Below are positions 9,301 through 15,161 of a stretch of DNA of 20,875 nt, one piece after another; position 1 is the stretch's first letter, and the number at the start of each line of letters is the position of its first letter. The notes under the pieces are model-generated. The model was not told where the DNA came from. It saw only the letters and a program-made list of their open reading frames with translations, and ran no database searches. Location: the IMG/VR virus record IMGVR_UViG_2703718798_000003; one strand, 5' to 3'. The position numbers and the translations under genes were made by a program. This stretch comes from a virus (taxonomy: Duplodnaviria; Heunggongvirae; Uroviricota; Caudoviricetes).

Positions 9301-11735
9301 AGACCACGACGAACCATTTCACCCTCGAGTGTTTCCCCCTGGCGACCAGCGGCGTTTTCCGGTGCCGGAGCTTGTCCTTTCTGGAAACTCTGGCCCTTAA
9401 CCTCACCGGTTGTGGTAAAACGACCACCACGTCCGGCCTGATTCTCATCCGGCGTACGCGCCACCTCTCCCGGTAACGGATATCCCTGTCCGGGATGAAT
9501 ATCGCCGGGAGCGGGCAGGCGTGGACGCTCAGTTAACTCCTGTGCTGTCGGACCGGCATCACCTTCAGCCATCTGTGAACGTACAAGCTCCTCTGCCGTC
9601 GGCGCGTTGCCACGGGCAAGGCGGGCCTGTACCTCCGTATCATCCCCCGTGAAACCACGGAATCGCGGGTCACGCATGAACGCGGGCTGCTCCATCGGGT
9701 CAGCATCAGCAATACGCTCTCCGTCAGCCAGGGTGTTAATGGTTTCCGTTGCCACATCTTCAGAGAACGCAGGATTATCCATTTCAACGGCATATTGATT
9801 CTCGCCTTTCTTCACTACGGACGGTTTCAGGCCGGTGGCGGCGGCATTACGGAAAACATCACTCCCCATGGCGCTTTTCTCATCCGTGAAATAACGGTTG
9901 TCCGGGCGCACCTTTTCAATGCGTTCCGCTGGTCTGGACGCACCATTCCCGTTAATTTCAATGCGGACTTCATTCGGGTCCCGGAACCGCACCGTCGGGT
10001 AAATGCTCCCGTTACCATCCTCCGCATTTTCAGGCTGTGACTGTGCTTCCGGCGTCACTTCCTGTTGTGGGCGAATGACTTCTCGTATTGCCTGAAACTG
10101 TTGTTCTTCAGTCTCGGTGCGCTCCTCTTTCTGGCTGAGTCTGCGGTATTCCTCAAGCAGTTCAGAACGCGGCTTCGCCTTCAGCTCATTCATCACAGCC
10201 TGTCGCTTCGCCTGTTCGTCCAGTTCATTCAACAACTGGCTGGCAGCTTCCCGGCGATGAGCTGCGGATACGTCACCCTCTGTTGCCATATCCGCATCAG
10301 CATACTGCTCCAGAAGCTGCTCGCGATTCATGCCCTGCATGGATTCACGCTGCTGCGCCACCGGATCAACAGATTCTGGTTGCGGGGCTGCGTCGTCCTG
10401 CTGCACGGTTTCAGCATCACGCATGGCGGTTTCTTCTGCGGCCTGACGTCTGCCACGATATCCGGCAACCGCACCGGATGGAGCCCCCATCGCAGCACCA
10501 AAGGCTGCACCTTCGATCGTTGCGTCAGCCACGCCCTCCCACGGTGACACATCCATTCCGGCGGTCTCACGCAATGCCGTGTTTTCCTGATAGCGTGAAT
10601 AGCCGCCCTGCGCCGCATTAATCGCCCCCTGTTCCGTGGCATTTCTGACAATGCCGCTTTTAACGGTCTTCGCTGTGCCTCGTGTCACCAGATTAAACAG
10701 TTGTGCGTCACCCAGTTTTGCCGCCATGGCATTCACAGCCAGCAATTCAGGATCGGTTGCCAGCTGCGCGCGCACCTCATCGGCAACACGCTCTTTTGCC
10801 AGATCCATTTTCTGGCGATCAGTAAGCTGTGCGTGCTGCGGGTCGGCGTCAATGGACAAAAACGTCTGCTGAAATTTCGGTGACTGCGCCAGCTCAGAGT
10901 AATCCGCATTAAGAACAGCATCTGCTGCCGCCATTGCACTCTGCCCCTGTGCACTGGCTGTGGAATGGGTGATCAGGCCCGCCTGGAATAAATCCGGCAT
11001 TTTTTTATCGACAGCTTCTGCTGCCAGTGCCGTGGCTCTTTCCGGCTGCATCCCTGCCGCGATGTATTTTTTCTCCAGCCCGGCGGTCAGCATTTTTCGC
11101 AGTGTGACATCACCCACCTTTTTAGCCACACCGCCAGCAACCATATCAGGTACAAGCGCACCAATCAGGTTTACACCCTTCGCCACCCAGACCGCAGAAT
11201 CATCATAGCCTTCGGTCATCGGCGTATTCAGCGCACGAACAGCACCCGGCGACATCTTACCGGTCAGCCATTCATCAGTGGCTTCAGCACCATCACTGAC
11301 AGCCTTACCGGTTGCCTTCAGACCTTTACCGACAGTATCAGTAACCGCGTTTTTGCCATCAGGCAGGGTATCGATGACCTCATCAGCCCCCCTGCTGCCA
11401 CCGGCAAAAATATCCTGCACAGTTGCGACACCCGGCAGCCCCATACGGCTGAACTCATTTAAAATACGCGCCCCTGTTTTTACCGGGCTTTGAATCATCG
11501 CATCACCGAGTCCACGGGCCATTTCCCCTGTTCCCCGGACGGACTGGGCGAAACCTTTACCCATTGTTGGCAATACATCGCCCAGGCTGAACGACGTACT
11601 GTTATCCTTCCAGCGATTCGGATCAGAGAAAAATGCTTCATAGCTGTCAGTTTCGCCGGGTTGCTGAATGTTCAGGCTGTTACGATTCTGGTTACCGAGT
11701 TGCGCCTCAGGACGCTGTTCCTCTGAATAGGCCAT
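3345..11735 (-). CDS. Giant 2,796 aa protein with two HExxH (zincin-like) motifs; possible polyvalent / virion-internal protein, function unknown
   Basis: Uninterrupted minus-strand ORF. Start placed at ATG 11733-11735 (MAYSEEQ, GGAG SD 5 nt upstream); the longer frame to 11774 overlaps a terminator hairpin. HEWFH encoded at 7872-7886 and HEIIH at 7071-7085; Pro/Glu-rich low-complexity linker with GLP(S/A)PD-like repeats; Gly/Ala-rich N-terminus. No Walker A or hemagglutinin/YD repeats noticed. Confidence 0.85.
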   Translation of the reverse strand: MAYSEEQRPEAQLGNQNRNSLNIQQPGETDSYEAFFSDPNRWKDNSTSFSLGDVLPTMGKGFAQSVRGTGEMARGLGDAMIQSPVKTGARILNEFSRMGLPGVATVQDIFAGGSRGADEVIDTLPDGKNAVTDTVGKGLKATGKAVSDGAEATDEWLTGKMSPGAVRALNTPMTEGYDDSAVWVAKGVNLIGALVPDMVAGGVAKKVGDVTLRKMLTAGLEKKYIAAGMQPERATALAAEAVDKKMPDLFQAGLITHSTASAQGQSAMAAADAVLNADYSELAQSPKFQQTFLSIDADPQHAQLTDRQKMDLAKERVADEVRAQLATDPELLAVNAMAAKLGDAQLFNLVTRGTAKTVKSGIVRNATEQGAINAAQGGYSRYQENTALRETAGMDVSPWEGVADATIEGAAFGAAMGAPSGAVAGYRGRRQAAEETAMRDAETVQQDDAAPQPESVDPVAQQRESMQGMNREQLLEQYADADMATEGDVSAAHRREAASQLLNELDEQAKRQAVMNELKAKPRSELLEEYRRLSQKEERTETEEQQFQAIREVIRPQQEVTPEAQSQPENAEDGNGSIYPTVRFRDPNEVRIEINGNGASRPAERIEKVRPDNRYFTDEKSAMGSDVFRNAAATGLKPSVVKKGENQYAVEMDNPAFSEDVATETINTLADGERIADADPMEQPAFMRDPRFRGFTGDDTEVQARLARGNAPTAEELVRSQMAEGDAGPTAQELTERPRLPAPGDIHPGQGYPLPGEVARTPDENQAGRGGRFTTTGEVKGQSFQKGQAPAPENAAGRQGETLEGEMVRRGLPSPDAQNATAPVREGLPAPDIARNVRMPQPESLPRTVRDSLPELAQQAEVRRQAGGNRDIPQPETIAPESETTVSTDREATVRGGEVRGKKIEDFGEEIKGAAKHRYAQLAETLGKTLEDRDYATQPLSKLFPKPDYAKLANEGADADTLAMIALYRSDIPAKTKHNTAGWGESIKKVRHSVSEMLNGTVSAKRLAEWMEGRMPSRYADTWQLLRTLPPSQMDRASAYRVVSGVYQAAGGKRYDPPQKLYSLRNKDNKGSNLFFSESRDELLAKAKVWFAEQEEKSQAKGDEKTAPSPDDKIRFDVYRNTRSGDIFIAYGKNKMRVRGGFKSASDARKYIDSHRDELVRHVKEMREISREEQRNATNRDRTGPERRKGNVSPEQFSDAFGFRGVQFGNYVEGPRRQADLNRAYDSLHDLAEVLNVPTKALSLNGRLGLAFGARGKGKAAAHYEPGEVAINLTKGNGPGALAHEWFHSLDNYFGRYDVSNDGKITSGGDFMTEAQRVRRIFKDGRYVDAEYPVRQEVYDAFKGVIQAIKNSDMPRRSALLDEVRSKPYWSTDVEMAARAFERYVQDKARMAGVENDYLVNIRKAPEHNTDNTWAYPTNAELDGGIRDAFDHLFSTLKTRETDKGVAFYSRKGVTRTPEGNLISDVNRSAEAKGSPVPQVEAVVRGVMSGIKDSDLKVRVVKSQKEAEALAGELFDGYGRVHAFYRPDKREIVLVADNIPDGRTVREKLRHEIIHHAMEHVVTPAEYQTIIKTVLKTRDSDNATIREAWRKVDASYGKESPEVQAGEFLAHMAEKQPNKFVAAWERVVALVKGVLRRTGLLKPTELNDIRLVRETIRTLGQRVREGYTPREDGVGASSQYSRSGKPDPFKADAYDAKQFASEVRRIAGLQSVSRREMLRVGDTPRVLRALGAPDLELVMPASVVHKATRPEIREHFVSVETLADLPQLLTDPVVVMRSKTESDALVSLIQATDTKGNPVIVAIHTHVKGDGFAEINKIASAYGKDKRSALQDQLDTSLLYLNKEKAAEWLHAVGLQLPEANTINGSSGFKILHPEDIRKGPYYSRTSSLTPEDTIASRFVRQMQDKFQVLKAVQENIRKTGGKIDDSNNAYMAEELFHGKAENDLNVMKERYVQPLAKLLADYKIAQADLDEYLYARHAPERNAHIAKINPKMPDGGSGMTNAEAAEIMQRVRNSGKQAQYDRLAGIVDDMLARRRELIREAGLEESGVVDAWQNAYRYYVPLKGQDVDGVVSLPRTGKGFTIGGRESRQAMGRASRAQSPSTQAIQDLSESLIRHRKNEVGNAFLKLVQDNPDKDYWQVFTDDRPDTMRVIAERKDQETGETIREVVERPVAMAMMADRYFTTKKNGKTYYIKLHDPRLMRAMKNMGPETSNAVIRTLGKVNRFLATVNTSYNPEFLVSNFIRDVQTAVMNLKAEQGRSDGKLKGLDNLSALAVVKDSRSAMSAVYASLRGKTLTGKGTQWQKVWKEFVEDGGKTGWFNMGDLEGQQKEMDRLVSLAKGGWKGQSIGAWNSFLNLVEDANGAVENALRLSAYKHARDAGLSRQQAASLAKNMTVNFNRRGEQGALMNSLYMFANASIQGTANLVRTLGHLNGEGPLLERLRWKNLNVPQKIALAAVGAGYLLGSLNRSVAGEDDDGVNWYDKVPSHVKERNLVIMKSVFGGKAGEYWSIPLPYGYNVFFLLGHTAEGVAAGDLTASRAAGNVVGGVLGAFSPIGSETSETLSGALLKNAAPTILRPFANLAMNENFMGAQIYQENMPFGTPKPDSQLGRRSTPEAYKAFASWLNAFSGGSQYRPGAVDITPESLKYWVDYISGGTGRFISKTTDAAVKSLNGIDIPEQQVPFLGKISGEVMPYADQQKMYDRMTEVAQYHAELKSLTGAERTAFIDENNGKLSMNGLMQDTRKRLKDLRKQCDAIYADSTLSLAQQSAMVKSVERDMKIAVDRFNREYNKKVGVE

Positions 11736-11744
11736 ACAGACTCC

Positions 11745-11772
11745 ATAAAAAAACCCGGCACAATGGCCGGGC
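11745..11772 (-). terminator. Rho-independent terminator between the 421 aa gene and the giant ORF
   Basis: Minus strand: CCCGGC-CATTGT-GCCGGG followed by TTTTTTTA, ~35 nt after stop 11805-11807 and immediately before the giant ORF SD/start. Confidence 0.6.
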
Positions 11773-11804
11773 ATCAGGAAATGGTGTTAATGGAATATCG
11801 TGAA

Positions 11805-13070
11805 TTACTGGGCGTAATTCTGTTTCAGTCCACGGATAAACTGAGATGCAGATGAAGCACTTTCATCTCTGGCCTGTTCCCCCCTGGCCTTTTTAATACG
11901 GAGAAAATTCGCATACCCGTTCTCCAGCAATTTCTGATTCTGAGGTTCCAGCATTTCAGGCTGACGGGCCGCTACATTTCTGGCAAATGACAGCTTATCA
12001 GGATCATCTCCCGCCCAGTTGATAACCTGTTGCTGAAGTTTTTGTTGCTGAATTTTCTGTTGATGCGGTTGTGAACCAGTCGCAGCATAATATTCATCCA
12101 CCGCAGCCTGAGCATTACCGCCATTCTTGATCGCGTCCGCCGCTACGTTGCTGGCCCCCTTCTGAAGCTCTTTCAGAGAAAGTCCCTGCTGCTTCGGCAT
12201 AAAATAACCATAATTTTTCGATATCTCTGCAAATTTGCTGCGATCCCTGACCTGAGCGATAGCCTTATCAACGGGTATCGCCAGCACGGTTTGATCATCA
12301 GGGTGCGCACTGCCGTATTCTGTTACAGGTTTATGCGCGGTGGAGCCATCGCTGTATGTGAGATCAAGGCCAATAAGTACGTACCCTTCCTGCTGCGCCG
12401 GTACGATACTGCCAATCCTGGCCTCTTTTATCGTTTTTTCCCCGGTTGAATCAGGCATGCCAATACGCTGTTGTAGTTCCGGGGCAAACACGCCGGAAAG
12501 CACATCGAGATTTTCCGGGGTATTCAGCGAAGCAATCGCCCTGTCCGGCTTATCATCAAAGATTTTCTGCAGGTTGTTCACGGCCTGACCCGCTTTCGCA
12601 GCATAGCCTACCGTTGACATCATCTTAAGCGGATTGGCGTCCGATAATTTACCGAACAGATGAGAAGCCGCATCATGGTCACCCGCATCAATCGCTTTTC
12701 CCAGCGCCGCCATCACAGGCTGATCGCGCGCCAGCATATCGTTATACTCAAGCCGTCGCTGGTTGTATTTCTGCAACTGGAGTCGTTGCTGTTCCATCCC
12801 CAGCGACGCATTCCGGTAATTCTGGTTGGCGTTAAACTCCCTTTCCTGCAGTGTGTAATTGCGGTCATCAACTTTGGCTCTGTAATCAAAGTTCCGCTGA
12901 TCAACGTCTTTATTATGTTCAAACTGAGACTGCGCAAATTCAAAATCGCGCTCGTTATTTTTCTGTTGCTGAGCAAGCTGTGCTTCTCGCAAACCAAGCT
13001 CCTTACGACGGGTCATTGCCTGGTCAACAGTGCTGAATCCGGCAAGTAACCCCTGTGCAAATCCGCTCAT
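11805..13070 (-). CDS. Hypothetical protein, 421 aa, Gln/charged-rich with coiled-coil-like N-terminal third
   Basis: Complete ORF with strong AAGGAG SD 6 nt upstream, overlapping the stop of the preceding gene. No recognisable catalytic motif. Confidence 0.7.
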   Translation of the reverse strand: MSGFAQGLLAGFSTVDQAMTRRKELGLREAQLAQQQKNNERDFEFAQSQFEHNKDVDQRNFDYRAKVDDRNYTLQEREFNANQNYRNASLGMEQQRLQLQKYNQRRLEYNDMLARDQPVMAALGKAIDAGDHDAASHLFGKLSDANPLKMMSTVGYAAKAGQAVNNLQKIFDDKPDRAIASLNTPENLDVLSGVFAPELQQRIGMPDSTGEKTIKEARIGSIVPAQQEGYVLIGLDLTYSDGSTAHKPVTEYGSAHPDDQTVLAIPVDKAIAQVRDRSKFAEISKNYGYFMPKQQGLSLKELQKGASNVAADAIKNGGNAQAAVDEYYAATGSQPHQQKIQQQKLQQQVINWAGDDPDKLSFARNVAARQPEMLEPQNQKLLENGYANFLRIKKARGEQARDESASSASQFIRGLKQNYAQ

Positions 13071-13080
13071 TCACCACTCC

Positions 13081-13353
13081 TTAAAACAAAGCGCCTGCAA
13101 TGCCGCCAATTACTGCACCAGCAACAGCGCCGACGGCTGTCCCCACTACCGGTACTGCTGAACCAACAGTCGCCCCGATAGTGGCCCCCGTACCAATGCC
13201 CGTACCGATATTCTGTTTTTTCTGAGCTTTCTGTTGAGCAGCCAGTTGTTTATTTGATGCCTCAATCTCTGTACGTCGTCTGTCTGCGTCACTTATTCCC
13301 TGTAATGCCTCACGCCGCGACTGATTTGCAATATCCAGTAAACCGTATCCCAT
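13081..13353 (-). CDS. Hypothetical 90 aa protein with C-terminal glycine-zipper hydrophobic segment
   Basis: AGGGGG SD upstream; C-terminus GTGIGTGATIGATVGSAVPVVGTAVGAVAGAVIGGIAGALF (GxxxG repeats) suggests a tail-anchored membrane segment; N-terminus charged/helical. Confidence 0.65.
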   Translation of the reverse strand: MGYGLLDIANQSRREALQGISDADRRRTEIEASNKQLAAQQKAQKKQNIGTGIGTGATIGATVGSAVPVVGTAVGAVAGAVIGGIAGALF

Positions 13354-13362
13354 ATTGCCCCC

Positions 13363-13809
13363 TTACGCTGCCACCAGTTGTCCGCCAACACTCAGTTTCT
13401 GTCTTGCCGGTGCAGAAGCCCCCGTCAGAATATTCATCTGGCGATCCTGTTCGGCTTCACGGATACCATTTTTCGCACCTGCTATTGCCAGGGCATTACG
13501 TAACCCCAGCGTATTACTGTCGGGATTATCCGGGCGGCTTACCCCGTATCTCGCCATCTGGTTATCCTGCGCCATCTGCGCTGTACGGAGACTGGAAGTG
13601 GCAAGGCCTCCCACCCGTGCAAGCTGTGGATTCATCAGACTGTTGTTCTCCCCAAGGTCAGCCAGCCTTGCTACACGGGGTAAATATCTGGTGCGCCAGT
13701 CGTCGTATTGCTGGCGGGTCAGCGCTGCGGATGTCTGCCAGTCCCCCTGAGGGCGGGCTGCTCCGGTATAACCGTATCTCGCAAGTGTTTCGTATTTACC
13801 GTACTCCAT
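13363..13809 (-). CDS. Hypothetical protein (~148 aa)
   Basis: ORF track gives 13363..13815 with a GTG start; the ATG at 13807-13809 (MEYGKYE) has GGAG ~9 nt upstream and sits 2 nt after the TGA of the upstream gene, so tight coupling either way. Confidence 0.6.
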   Translation of the reverse strand: MEYGKYETLARYGYTGAARPQGDWQTSAALTRQQYDDWRTRYLPRVARLADLGENNSLMNPQLARVGGLATSSLRTAQMAQDNQMARYGVSRPDNPDSNTLGLRNALAIAGAKNGIREAEQDRQMNILTGASAPARQKLSVGGQLVAA

Positions 13810-13811
13810 AA

Positions 13812-14468
13812 TCACAGTCTCCAGTTCTGAGCCTGATGCTGAATGGCATTAGCGCCAGTGCCAGGTGTTTTAGCACCGCCACTTCCTCCGCTACCGCCAG
13901 CCTTATGCATCGCATATGCACCTGCCGCACCCAGACCAGCGCCAACAAGAGAGGCTCGCCCCTGCTGTTTCGTAAACGCCGCCTGTGCATCCGATTTAGC
14001 TTTTGCCAGACTGCTGTCTGCCAGAGAGTTAAAACTCTGTAACGCATCCGCCTTCTGACCAGAACCGAGAGCAGCAACATCCTGTAGCCCGGCAACATAC
14101 TTATCTGCCTGCGATACCTGCCCCCGTGTGGTTGTGTCAATCTGCCCGGTTACCTGATCACTCTGGTTCGCATTCATTACCGCGTTAAAGCGACCACTGG
14201 ACGGGTCAACACCGGACTGAGCAAGATTACCCGCCAGCTCCTTCCGTGCTTCGCCAAACTGTTTCTGATACCCCAGATTTGTGGTGCCAGCGATATTGTC
14301 GTACTGCTGCTCACTGTTCAGGTCATCGACCTTTTCCATGAAGTTATCTTCAGCCGGGCGGAGGATATTTTTGTAATCCTGCCACCCTTTCCAGGCCACT
14401 TCTTCCTGTGCTATTTGCGCTGCTGTTGGTTTTACTTTGGTATCACCACCACCTTTACTTCCACCCAT
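13812..14468 (-). CDS. Hypothetical protein, 218 aa, Gly/Ala/Gln-rich (MGGSKGGG N-terminus)
   Basis: Complete ORF directly after a terminator; first gene of a tightly packed four-gene operon. Low-complexity composition. Confidence 0.65.
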   Translation of the reverse strand: MGGSKGGGDTKVKPTAAQIAQEEVAWKGWQDYKNILRPAEDNFMEKVDDLNSEQQYDNIAGTTNLGYQKQFGEARKELAGNLAQSGVDPSSGRFNAVMNANQSDQVTGQIDTTTRGQVSQADKYVAGLQDVAALGSGQKADALQSFNSLADSSLAKAKSDAQAAFTKQQGRASLVGAGLGAAGAYAMHKAGGSGGSGGAKTPGTGANAIQHQAQNWRL

Positions 14469-14483
14469 AATGGCCCCCTGGAT

Positions 14484-14510
14484 AATAAAAAAACCCTGCC
14501 GGAGCAGGGT
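14484..14510 (-). terminator. Rho-independent terminator downstream of the 125 aa gene
   Basis: Minus strand: ACCCTGC-TCCG-GCAGGGT followed by TTTTTTTATTATCC; the 218 aa gene start lies ~20 nt beyond. Confidence 0.6.
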
Positions 14511-14562
14511 CAGAATGTGAATTGCAATGTTGGTTTAAACACGATGATGAAAACTGTGGCAG

Positions 14563-14940
14563 TCAGACCGCTATCCTGAACACCATGAAGCCATCCTCAT
14601 CATCCGGCATTCGCTCAAAGCCCAGACGTTTTCCCAGCCGGATAAATCCCCGCCTTGCCGTATGAAATTCAGCCCAACGTCCGCCAGCCAGACGGGTTAA
14701 TGTCTTCACCTCCGGCAGATAACGCTCAACGCTGTTACTCCCCGTACACACGCCCAGCAACACCAGAACATAAGGGATACCATCAGCACTGAGCACAGAA
14801 CGCAGCACCAGAAAGCCATCAGGTGCCTCAAAACAAAACGCCTGCTTTTTAAGGCAGGCGTCTTTAACTTCATTCATAAATTCAGGGTTGCGGGAATTTC
14901 TCACCACACGCTGCATATACCGGAGAATTTTATCGTTCAT
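14563..14940 (-). CDS. Hypothetical protein (~125 aa)
   Basis: Start placed at ATG 14938-14940 (MNDKILRYMQ, AGGTGA SD 4 nt upstream) rather than 14964. Contains an embedded terminator-like hairpin at ~14839-14860. No family recognised. Confidence 0.55.
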   Translation of the reverse strand: MNDKILRYMQRVVRNSRNPEFMNEVKDACLKKQAFCFEAPDGFLVLRSVLSADGIPYVLVLLGVCTGSNSVERYLPEVKTLTRLAGGRWAEFHTARRGFIRLGKRLGFERMPDDEDGFMVFRIAV

Positions 14941-15020
14941 TCTCTCACCTGAAACGGGTGCCATATCGGCTGAACCTCAGCAACCAGTTGACGGGGACTT
15001 TCGTCCCCGTCGCGGTTTTC

Positions 15021-15161
15021 CTACTGCTTACACTGTAAGAACGCCGCAAACTCCGCTCCCCACAAATTCAGCCGGAACTCACACAGCGAACCGTGCAACA
15101 TCCAGATAGTGAAGATAACCGTCATACAAATTGTGACGGTGATAAGCGATTTTTGCGACAT
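15021..15161 (-). CDS. hok: Hok/Gef-family type I toxin (46 aa)
   Basis: Translation MSQKSLITVTICMTVIFTIWMLHGSLCEFRLNLWGAEFAAFLQCKQ shares the Hok signature (N-terminal TM helix, SLCE...R, E(V/F)AAFL...CK) with recalled HokA/Gef sequences. Perfect AGGAGG SD 9 nt upstream. Stem-loop GACGGGGAC-GAAA-GTCCCCGTC 10 nt after the stop (14990-15011). Confidence 0.8.
   Translation of the reverse strand: MSQKSLITVTICMTVIFTIWMLHGSLCEFRLNLWGAEFAAFLQCKQ

Follow-up and report, generated by a model that had tools for sequence, protein, structure and literature searches.

The ejection cassette is a known type of system in podoviruses: a gene for a protein of about 200 amino acids (aa) is followed by one for a protein of 431–982 aa and then by the gene for the largest protein, and such cassettes have been matched by size and synteny at less than 10% identity (PMC8954989). 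In phage P22, the N-terminus of the mature ejection protein gp7 is Lys-Gly-Gly-Lys-Gly after OpdA removes 20 residues (PMC8402733; note in NC_002371), and for the polyvalent proteins as a class, injection along with the DNA has been predicted (PMC5512222). For phage phi24B, a preprint describes electron cryo-microscopy (cryo-EM) together with proteomics of purified virions (10.64898/2026.04.10.717836). Here we examined a stretch of viral DNA of 20,875 nucleotides (nt), the IMG/VR record IMGVR_UViG_2703718798_000003 (the window), and in it a block of four genes at 11805–14468, designated A218, B148, C90 and D421 after the lengths of their products, together with the small gene U133 upstream and the gene for a giant polyvalent protein downstream. 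We consider it probable that these six genes constitute the cassette by which a podovirus of the 933W/phi24B type ejects its DNA, and that this cassette is related, in rearranged form, to the P22 set 14-7-20-16.

Orthologues of the Cassette Proteins in phi24B Virions

As judged from nucleotide matches, the window represents the late region of a short-tailed Shiga toxin (Stx) prophage of the 933W/phi24B type. The region 11700–14620 is matched by 186 phage records at 80–99.6% identity, and these are exclusively short-tailed Stx-converting phages of the 933W/phi24B/P13374 type (Sepvirinae); phi24B itself shows 94.8% nt identity to this region. The block was found in 424 of 5426 complete E. coli genomes, and the long open reading frames (ORFs) of the window all lie on the minus strand.

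The published mass-spectrometry data contain the phi24B orthologues of all four proteins and of the giant protein, so that the virion proteomics proposed as a check by an earlier reading of the window, made from its letters alone (hereafter, the sequence-only reading), gave a positive answer. The numbers of peptide-spectrum matches (PSMs), which come from the supplementary table of the phi24B preprint (10.64898/2026.04.10.717836) and refer to orthologues rather than to this prophage, were 10962 for gp47 (the giant protein), 1634 for gp48 (D421), 523 for gp51 (A218), 129 for gp50 (B148; 83 of them in the batch digest) and 13 for an unlabelled 86-aa ORF (C90). The low count for C90 is expected, because only four of its tryptic peptides fall into the detectable size range. 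The gel-band peaks of the orthologues fit the full-length sizes, the peak of gp48 adjoining the 45-kDa capsid protein and that of gp51 lying near the adaptor gp64 of about 25 kDa. Our own rough calculation of copy numbers, in which the batch PSMs per residue were scaled to 12 portal copies, gave about 32 copies per phi24B virion for A218, 48 for B148, 6 for C90, 37 for D421 and 23 for the giant protein; the same method returned about 6 for the nozzle (true number, 6) and about 11 for the adaptor (true number, 12). D421 is the most abundant of the four, and its level in the virion proteome is above that of the portal. The list of phi24B virion proteins does not include the U133 orthologue.

In the preprint, whose particle images comprise about 36,000 emptied and 52,000 full phi24B particles, the tail seen by cryo-EM is fully assigned to the portal, two adaptor rings, nozzle, lateral fibres and needle, and the text of the structural description nowhere mentions the five proteins, from which we infer that they are absent from the model (10.64898/2026.04.10.717836). 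Its authors propose gp47 alone as an ejection protein; on annotation alone they discount a 'homolog of a bacteriocin' as contamination, and likewise a 'transcription regulation factor', which may be gp48 (labelled 'Transcription factor?' in their table) (10.64898/2026.04.10.717836). Independently of phi24B, positional or homologous counterparts supported by virion mass spectrometry or by annotation are found in JC1/Bcep22-like phages, GP4 and phiARM81mr, and those of JC1 were detected in virions by mass spectrometry (PMC9144972). A lysogen-expression study makes no mention of the function of the phi24B orthologues.

Gene Organization and Conservation of the Block

All genes of the block are on the minus strand. 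A218 (13812–14468) encodes 218 aa starting with MGGSKGGG, B148 (13363–13809) 148 aa from an ATG, C90 (13081–13353) 90 aa, and D421 (11805–13070) 421 aa with a long helix rich in Q, N and R. They are flanked by U133 (14563–14964; 133 aa from ATG 14964), a conserved small gene directly upstream of the cassette, and by the giant polyvalent gene (3345–11735; 2796 aa from ATG 11735). At the A218/B148 junction a TGA is followed by 2 nt and an ATG, with GGAG upstream; at the B148/C90 junction a TAA and an ATG are separated by 9 nt bearing AAGGGGG, and at the C90/D421 junction by 10 nt bearing GGAG. If B148 started instead at the in-frame GTG 13815, its product would have 150 aa; the ATG is the start chosen in annotated relatives. 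The packing, lengths, junctions, Shine-Dalgarno sequences and features of the four genes are just as the sequence-only reading had described them. The ratio of nonsynonymous to synonymous substitutions (dN/dS) against other Stx phages is 0.04–0.3, with one outlier of 0.48. Because dN/dS is low, homologues occur in many genera and peptides of the orthologues were seen by mass spectrometry, the four ORFs are genuine genes. The succession of 218, (148, 90), 421 and 2796 aa, contiguous and on one strand, fits the rule for ejection cassettes (PMC8954989).

The A218 family comprises at least 955 clusters at 50% identity and was found in Salmonella, Citrobacter, Serratia, Yersinia, Pectobacterium, Dickeya, Brenneria and Edwardsiella, as well as in Aeromonas, Photobacterium, Vibrio, Enterovibrio, Oceanisphaera and Psychrosphaera. 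Synteny was counted in a collection with one genome per species, which provided 41 loci. In 38 of them all four genes keep this order on a single strand, the remaining three being cut by contig ends, and a U133 homologue lies directly upstream of the A218 gene in 39 of the 41. Among the 33 loci that are long enough, 28 have an ORF of at least 1000 aa beginning within 4 kb downstream, and the other five have a same-strand run of ORFs of 200–1160 aa instead. The set is thus co-inherited in a fixed order, and the independent distribution that the sequence-only reading had put forward as evidence against itself was not found among these species loci. Its 'four-gene operon' and 'five-gene module' have to be extended, since the conserved block also takes in the 133-aa gene upstream of the first terminator. 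In one Salmonella contig (NBPI01000024, 12320–20651), a Mu-like transposable prophage with a Mu transposase and a MuB-like ATPase interrupts the D421 homologue, of which 314 aa remain, and has displaced the giant gene.

Possible Relation of A218, B148 and C90 to P22 gp7

A218 has the Gly-rich tip MGGSKGGG, four long predicted helices and a conserved motif GVDPSSG; it matches phrog_611 and also phrog_8003, a 'virion structural protein' (E 1e-8). In its family, the N-terminus is nearly always M-G followed by residues rich in G, K and S. B148 matches phrog_596 and is devoid of the Gly-rich tip. When the B148 family was compared with a wide A218 profile by hhalign, a probability of 95.8% (E 7.7e-9) over 100 columns was obtained, and 30 column shuffles used as a control gave a minimum P of 0.011. 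B148 is thus paralogous to the core of A218. With 42 bits, A218 matches a 277-aa 'virion-associated' protein encoded by GP4 (E 2.5e-14; 96% by hhalign); it starts with MGGKGGGD and ends in a C90-like glycine-zipper tail, and such a fusion of an A218-like core to a glycine-zipper tail recurs in diverse viral contigs. Because the GP4-type homologues carry the fused tail, A218 and C90 are two parts of what elsewhere is one protein.

The comparison with known ejection proteins points, weakly, to P22 gp7. About 50 residues following KGGKG in gp7 align with the wide A218 profile in hhalign (P 8.1e-4, at a probability of only 24%). Of nine known ejection proteins, gp7 was the best, the other eight giving P of at least 0.11, and in the control all 40 shuffles gave P of at least 0.2. 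P22 gp7 itself matches phrog_598 only. C90 combines an amphipathic helix with a C-terminal glycine-zipper membrane segment ending in GALF; its residues 49–90 have a mean Kyte-Doolittle hydropathy of 1.95 and contain eight small-xxx-small-xxx-small motifs, and it alone of the four proteins has the membrane-inserting segment sought in an ejection cassette. It aligns by hhalign with residues 183–229 of gp7, the C-terminal 47 (probability 91%, P 1.1e-6). Both gp7-like ends are thereby present, the Gly-rich start on A218 (compare KGGKG) and the GALF end (GSLF in gp7) on C90, the tail being encoded by a separate gene. We treat the tail common to C90 and gp7 as a shared module rather than as proof of descent.

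The helix and zipper of C90 also match stretches inside tape-measure proteins and tail-associated lysins (PHROG families), an endolysin family and the defence protein LeoB (E 1e-4 to 1e-9), which suggests that they may be a widely reused membrane-insertion module. In PADLOC, the zipper matches a stretch of LeoB with E 1.2e-8, and the other proteins have no PADLOC match. Matches of C90 to the Pfam families Gly-zipper and Bacteriocin_IIc all stay below the cut-offs. A class II bacteriocin was considered for C90 and rejected: the Bacteriocin_IIc score is 17.3 bits at a cut-off of 27.1, it comes from the Gly-rich stretch only, and there is no leader. Profile comparison of C90 and D421 with other families gave no match. 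Scans of the four proteins and U133 with Pfam, NCBIfam and PADLOC yielded nothing above threshold, and sequence and profile searches of the PDB with A218, D421 and U133 yielded chance matches only.

D421 and the Giant Polyvalent Protein

D421 is made up of a conserved N-terminal GFLAGF motif, a helix of about 120 residues, a small beta domain and C-terminal helices. Its AlphaFold2 (AF2) model has a mean confidence (pLDDT) of 70; fold searches with it led to coiled-coil noise only, and no match to the gp15 fold or to other tunnel proteins was obtained. The sequences DGFLAGFNT of D421 and GGFLAGIGAQN of P22 gp20 occupy the same position and align with each other (P 0.0018 over 70 residues). No similarity between D421 and the 509-aa protein of GP4 was detectable by hhalign. 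By position and size, D421 may be the equivalent of P22 gp20 and T7 gp15, that is, of the periplasmic-tunnel class. The phi24B record notes 'similar to transcription initiation factor' for the D421 orthologue.

The giant protein bears the Pfam domains LPD5, LPD1, MuF_C metallopeptidase and LPD38. Its gene most likely starts at ATG 11735 and not at 11774, because GGAG lies 7 nt upstream of the former, which also matches annotated relatives, and ATG 11774 falls inside the terminator hairpin. The Shine-Dalgarno sequence of the giant gene begins 3 nt past the U-run of that terminator. Residues 1–460 (10356–11735) are the part conserved with distant relatives: the N-terminal 450 aa or so were detected by jackhmmer in 114 of 130 loci, and the middle domains vary. 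Across the loci the large protein has 1349–3127 aa and carries InPase and LPD38, MuF_C alone, or LPD5, LPD1, MuF_C and LPD38. It is presumed to be the last and largest ejection protein, provided with cargo domains.

Terminators and Expression of the Cassette

Two hairpins flank the four genes. The upstream one, between U133 and A218 (14484–14511, minus strand), has an 8-bp stem followed by T7 (hairpin at 14511–14492) and folds at −15 kcal/mol (z −5.3); the downstream one, between D421 and the giant gene (11745–11772, minus strand), has a 7-bp GC-rich stem followed by T7 (hairpin at 11772–11753) and folds at −17.2 kcal/mol (z −3.0). None of 200 shuffles folded as well as either, and both show the GC-rich hairpin and subsequent U-run of Rho-independent terminators. 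The terminator scan and shuffle folding thus bear out the two flanking intrinsic terminators of the sequence-only reading. A sigma-70-like site was not found on the minus strand at 11000–15000.

The two terminators differ in their distribution. The upstream one is present in 47 of 48 Stx-like loci vs. 6 of 81 other loci, and is thus almost only a feature of the E. coli Stx-phage lineage. It adjoins the lom/hok insertion and U133 on their downstream side; in most lineages the block directly follows the needle gene, and the lom/hok insertion is itself a feature of the E. coli lineage. A hairpin with a T-run at the D421/giant junction is found in all 44 Stx-like and in 50 of 62 other loci (94 of 106); the stem sequences are lineage-specific and the position is kept across genera. 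The terminator before the giant gene is therefore an old, conserved feature. Extra genes, among them a 66-aa ORF and an SDH-family protease, are often inserted directly after the D421/giant terminator. In Salmonella CP022015 (9003–9937), two extra genes, one of them for a YafO-family toxin, lie between the U133 and A218 homologues, at the junction that bears the terminator in E. coli.

The late genes of Stx phages are transcribed from pR' by a Q-modified polymerase, which passes downstream terminators (PMC8065619). Expression of the cassette by terminator read-through, as the sequence-only reading had supposed, is plausible by analogy. Transcription would come from the Q-antiterminated late promoter, and because the modified polymerase passes terminators, neither hairpin is expected to mark the limit of a transcription unit during lytic growth. 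The position of the upstream terminator just downstream of lom/hok and U133 suggests that in the lysogen it most likely insulates the cassette from transcription of lom/hok-type morons. The downstream terminator may lower expression of the giant gene, or may stabilize or protect the upstream mRNA.

U133 and a Possible N-Terminal Modification

The start of U133 is more likely ATG 14940 (125 aa), which is preceded by the Shine-Dalgarno sequence AGGTGAG; its product matches phrog_610, aligned from residue 9, and the gene occupies the position of P22 gene 14. A small GNAT acetyltransferase was suspected here on account of a GF-containing C-terminal motif and of the position of the GNAT in GP4. This candidate was rejected at the sequence and profile level: 19 members gave no Pfam match, a PDB profile search gave none either, and hhalign against the GP4 GNAT and a profile of 13 phage GNAT sequences gave probabilities below 1%. 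In the GP4/Bcep22-type phages themselves, as in related viral contigs, the end of a GNAT (RimL-like) gene and the first 8–11 nt of the A218-family gene coincide (GP4 locus 14044–14490; JC1 gp63-gp64, PMC9144972). In published descriptions this GNAT gene counts as a moron; that it is constantly coupled to a gene for an ejection protein suggests that the two are functionally linked.

Many A218-family members have an N-terminal extension of 25–45 aa with a conserved F-x-P ... L-Y-F-K-G-G-G before the poly-Gly, which resembles the 20-residue leader cut from P22 gp7 just before KGGKG; members without the extension have Gly, Ser, Cys, Ala or Thr as their second residue. A requirement for Gly2 of the N-myristoylation kind in A218 is weakened by the Ser, Cys, Ala and Thr at this position and by the extensions. 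We regard as a long shot the idea that the gene upstream of the gp7-like gene (U133 or the GNAT) is a dedicated modifier of the Gly-rich N-terminus of that protein. If so, U133 or the GNAT would acylate or acetylate the Gly, Ser, Cys or Ala exposed by methionine removal, which would make an unrecognised maturation step in phage DNA delivery and a parallel to internal entry peptides of animal viruses that are modified at the N-terminus. The N-terminal peptide of the A218 orthologue is too short for the published mass-spectrometry data.

Genes in the Neighbourhood

Several neighbours of the cassette were named by comparison with phi24B: the nozzle gene (18398–20089), the central needle gene (17133–18401; also Pfam Phage_Tail_Tip), two small genes among the upstream neighbours, and lom (15392–16126). 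A hok-like toxin gene, a 46-aa Hok/Gef-like ORF (MSQKSLITVTICMTVIFTIWMLHGSLCEFRLNLWGAEFAAFLQCKQ; 15021–15161, minus strand), is situated between lom and U133; its equivalent in P13374 is labelled 'MokW-like host killing'. An Rfam scan of the window found no family, and no Sok or hok RNA at the gathering score. A hairpin at 14989–15012 near this ORF is terminator-like on the plus strand. Downstream of the giant gene, a 332-aa protein (1982–2980, minus strand) has a YadA-like membrane anchor (E 7.6e-16) and belongs to the prophage-borne trimeric autotransporters of the Eib type. In the related record PQ600364 (phiSTEC1589-Stx1c), which has an insertion of about 1.2 kb between the hok-like gene and U133 that is not in the window, product names look misassigned: the name 'portal protein' is given to the orthologue of A218, 'N4-family major capsid protein' to that of C90 and 'virulence determinant Bor' to lom.

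Discussion

In this study, we have regarded as established that the orthologues occur at roughly tens of copies in phi24B virions, outside the resolved capsid, portal, tail and fibres, that the set is co-inherited, and that A218 and B148 are paralogues and A218 has a homologue in GP4. The roles of the individual proteins are the weakest part of the model. Most probably, the proteins would be packed into the procapsid and lie disordered near the portal, as the E-proteins of P22 do, and on release or detachment of the needle they would be expelled through the tail. A218, B148 and C90 would jointly do the job of P22 gp7 and T7 gp14 by forming the first membrane pore, the glycine-zipper tail of C90 inserting into the membrane and the Gly-rich N-terminus of A218 resembling the KGGKG end of mature gp7. 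D421 would extend the channel through the periplasm, like gp20 and gp15, and the N-terminal 450 or so residues of the giant protein would complete the conduit and carry its metallopeptidase and LPD domains into the cell, while U133 would act as a non-virion helper.

A number of findings weigh against this model. The link between A218 and gp7 in hhalign is weak, the match of C90 to gp7 falls in a compositionally biased glycine zipper, and neither A218, B148 nor C90 matched phrog_598 (gp7, 'DNA ejection') in HMMER at E of 0.01 or below. Over the whole length, D421 is not significantly similar to gp20 (P 0.053 in hhalign), nor is U133 to gp14 (P 0.018, the best of nine comparisons), and hhalign revealed no similarity of the five families to T7 gp13–16 or N4 gp51/52. 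The AF2 model of A218 is all-alpha and of low confidence (pLDDT 48.6), and A218, B148 and D421 are without a strongly hydrophobic segment, no hydropathy window exceeding 1.0. Furthermore, the proteomics comes from a relative, its CsCl-purified virions also held traces of Lom and Bor, and the phi24B authors set aside the 'bacteriocin homolog', and possibly gp48 too, as contaminants; exit of the proteins from the capsid, their arrival at the envelope and a requirement for infectivity are what the model supposes.

The alternative that survives best, although we hold it to be unlikely, is that these are internal head proteins which package, organize or chaperone the giant protein as a cargo-loading scaffold and form no trans-envelope channel, with or without an exit from the capsid. 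Such a scaffold would account for the strict co-inheritance with a large polyvalent gene whose N-terminal 450 aa or so co-vary, for the presence in virions of proteins that are not resolved in the structure, and for A218, B148 and D421 being devoid of clear transmembrane segments. It does not sit well with the tails of C90, the GP4-type proteins and gp7, which are glycine zippers of the membrane type, nor with the plan, N-terminal motif and weak homology pointing to gp7, which is needed for DNA delivery and not for assembly (PMC4992974). Moreover, P22 has the same kind of set with a last protein of 609 aa, so that no giant cargo is required.

It is very improbable that the products are external or peripheral parts of the virion (tail accessory, fibre-associated or capsid-decorating), too flexible or too sub-stoichiometric for reconstruction. 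The long coiled-coil-like helix of D421 would suit this, and the distal needle and parts of the fibres were not resolved in phi24B. However, searches of Pfam, PHROGs, PDB and folds gave no homology to tail, fibre or decoration families, nor to the tail and baseplate proteins whose likeness would have told against the sequence-only reading. The stoichiometry of the phi24B tail is fully covered by other gene products, and an external 47-kDa protein at tens of copies should give density, as the phi24B authors argue for gp84. Finally, hardly any credence can be given to the view that the products are no virion components but belong to morons, or to a toxin, defence or accessory system such as a bacteriocin or a transcription factor, and co-purify with the particles: the database names 'bacteriocin' (C90) and 'similar to transcription initiation factor' (D421 orthologue), the LeoB match of C90 and the moron-like flanking terminators are outweighed by a Bacteriocin_IIc score below cut-off with no leader or immunity context, by the confinement of the LeoB match to the glycine-zipper stretch, by the place of D421 among the most abundant phage proteins of the virion, above the portal, by a fixed position within the structural module in 38 of 41 species and no promoter of its own, and by the agreement of virion mass spectrometry in unrelated hosts.

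The DNA-ejection cassette thus remains the probable reading. The sequence-only reading had offered 'an ejection/injection set or an undescribed accessory system', and the former half is the one upheld by the virion proteins, the co-inheritance with the giant gene and the links to gp7; the latter found no specific match in PADLOC or NCBIfam. Its description of the products as low-complexity or coiled-coil proteins with no catalytic motif requires a correction insofar as they are not unrelated, A218 and B148 being paralogues and C90 matching the gp7 tail. The remote-homology comparison with podovirus ejection proteins, which it had proposed, linked A218 weakly, and C90 within its biased zipper, to gp7 and gave nothing significant for U133 or for D421 over its whole length.

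How podoviruses deliver their DNA is left unchanged by these findings. In the literature examined, we did not meet a connection of gp7 with A218 and C90, the paralogy of B148 and A218, the extent of the block over six genes or the conserved terminator, nor the re-reading of the 'bacteriocin' and 'transcription factor' as virion proteins. Phages of the 933W/phi24B type spread Shiga toxin genes, and RefSeq names the cassette genes 'hypothetical protein' in E. coli genomes, while phage records mislabel C90 as a 'bacteriocin'. The ejection reading would supply five conserved genes, and a family of at least 955 clusters, with a working annotation, and would explain several abundant unassigned virion proteins of phi24B. 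It names the likeliest partners that carry the giant protein into the cell, which would be obvious targets for blocking lysogenic conversion experimentally, and it implies that an ejection protein can be split and duplicated, here into two copies of the gp7 core and a separate tail.

Comparison with Known Systems

The cassette resembles that of P22 in its place in the late operon after the needle gene (26), the order needle-U133-A218-B148-C90-D421-giant running parallel to 26-14-7-20-16, and in the sizes, with a non-virion gene of about 130–150 aa followed by proteins of about 220 and 420–470 aa and by the largest last. The KGGKG of mature gp7 corresponds to the A218 start, and the gp7 zipper ending in SLF to C90; the profile similarity of A218 to gp7 is weak but specific, and a GFLAG motif is common to D421 and gp20. 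Just as in phi24B, the E-proteins of P22 are in the virion and invisible in asymmetric reconstructions (PMC8402733). In contrast to P22, what corresponds to gp7 is here distributed over three genes (two for paralogous cores, one for the membrane tail), the final protein is a polyvalent one of 2796 aa vs. 609 aa, there is no 20-residue leader for OpdA to remove, and the capsid is T=9 and N4/GP4-like, whereas that of P22 is T=7; homology of D421 to gp20 and of U133 to gp14 is not demonstrable.

From T7 the cassette differs by the absence of profile similarity and of an ordered core stack in phi24B, as well as by a D421 model that gave no match to the gp15 fold; it shares with gp13-gp14-gp15-gp16 the size ladder, the order and the proposed division into an outer-membrane pore, a periplasmic tunnel and an inner-membrane and cytoplasmic part. 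In N4, the giant protein is an RNA polymerase rather than a polyvalent LPD/MuF_C protein, it has two small partners instead of four, and gp51 and gp52 are not similar to the proteins described here. Nevertheless, N4 likewise has a small membrane-active, a mid-sized tunnel and a giant protein of about 3500 aa, encoded by adjacent genes and ejected in the order gp52-gp51-gp50 (PMC13434306), and in both phages the capsid protein is N4-like and the capsid T=9.

In the GP4-type phages, a single protein unites the A218-like core with the glycine-zipper tail, a GNAT gene, which U133 does not resemble, and a PAPS-reductase-like gene are interleaved, and the 509-aa protein of GP4 shows no detectable similarity to D421. 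Yet the GP4/Bcep22-like phages (JC1) are the closest structurally characterized relatives of the phi24B tail, GP4 being named as such by the phi24B authors. In GP4 and JC1, small genes are followed by a virion protein of about 510 aa and then by a giant 'DarB-like' virion protein of 3224–4515 aa, and the 277-aa protein of GP4, which starts with MGGKGGG, is a clear homologue of A218.

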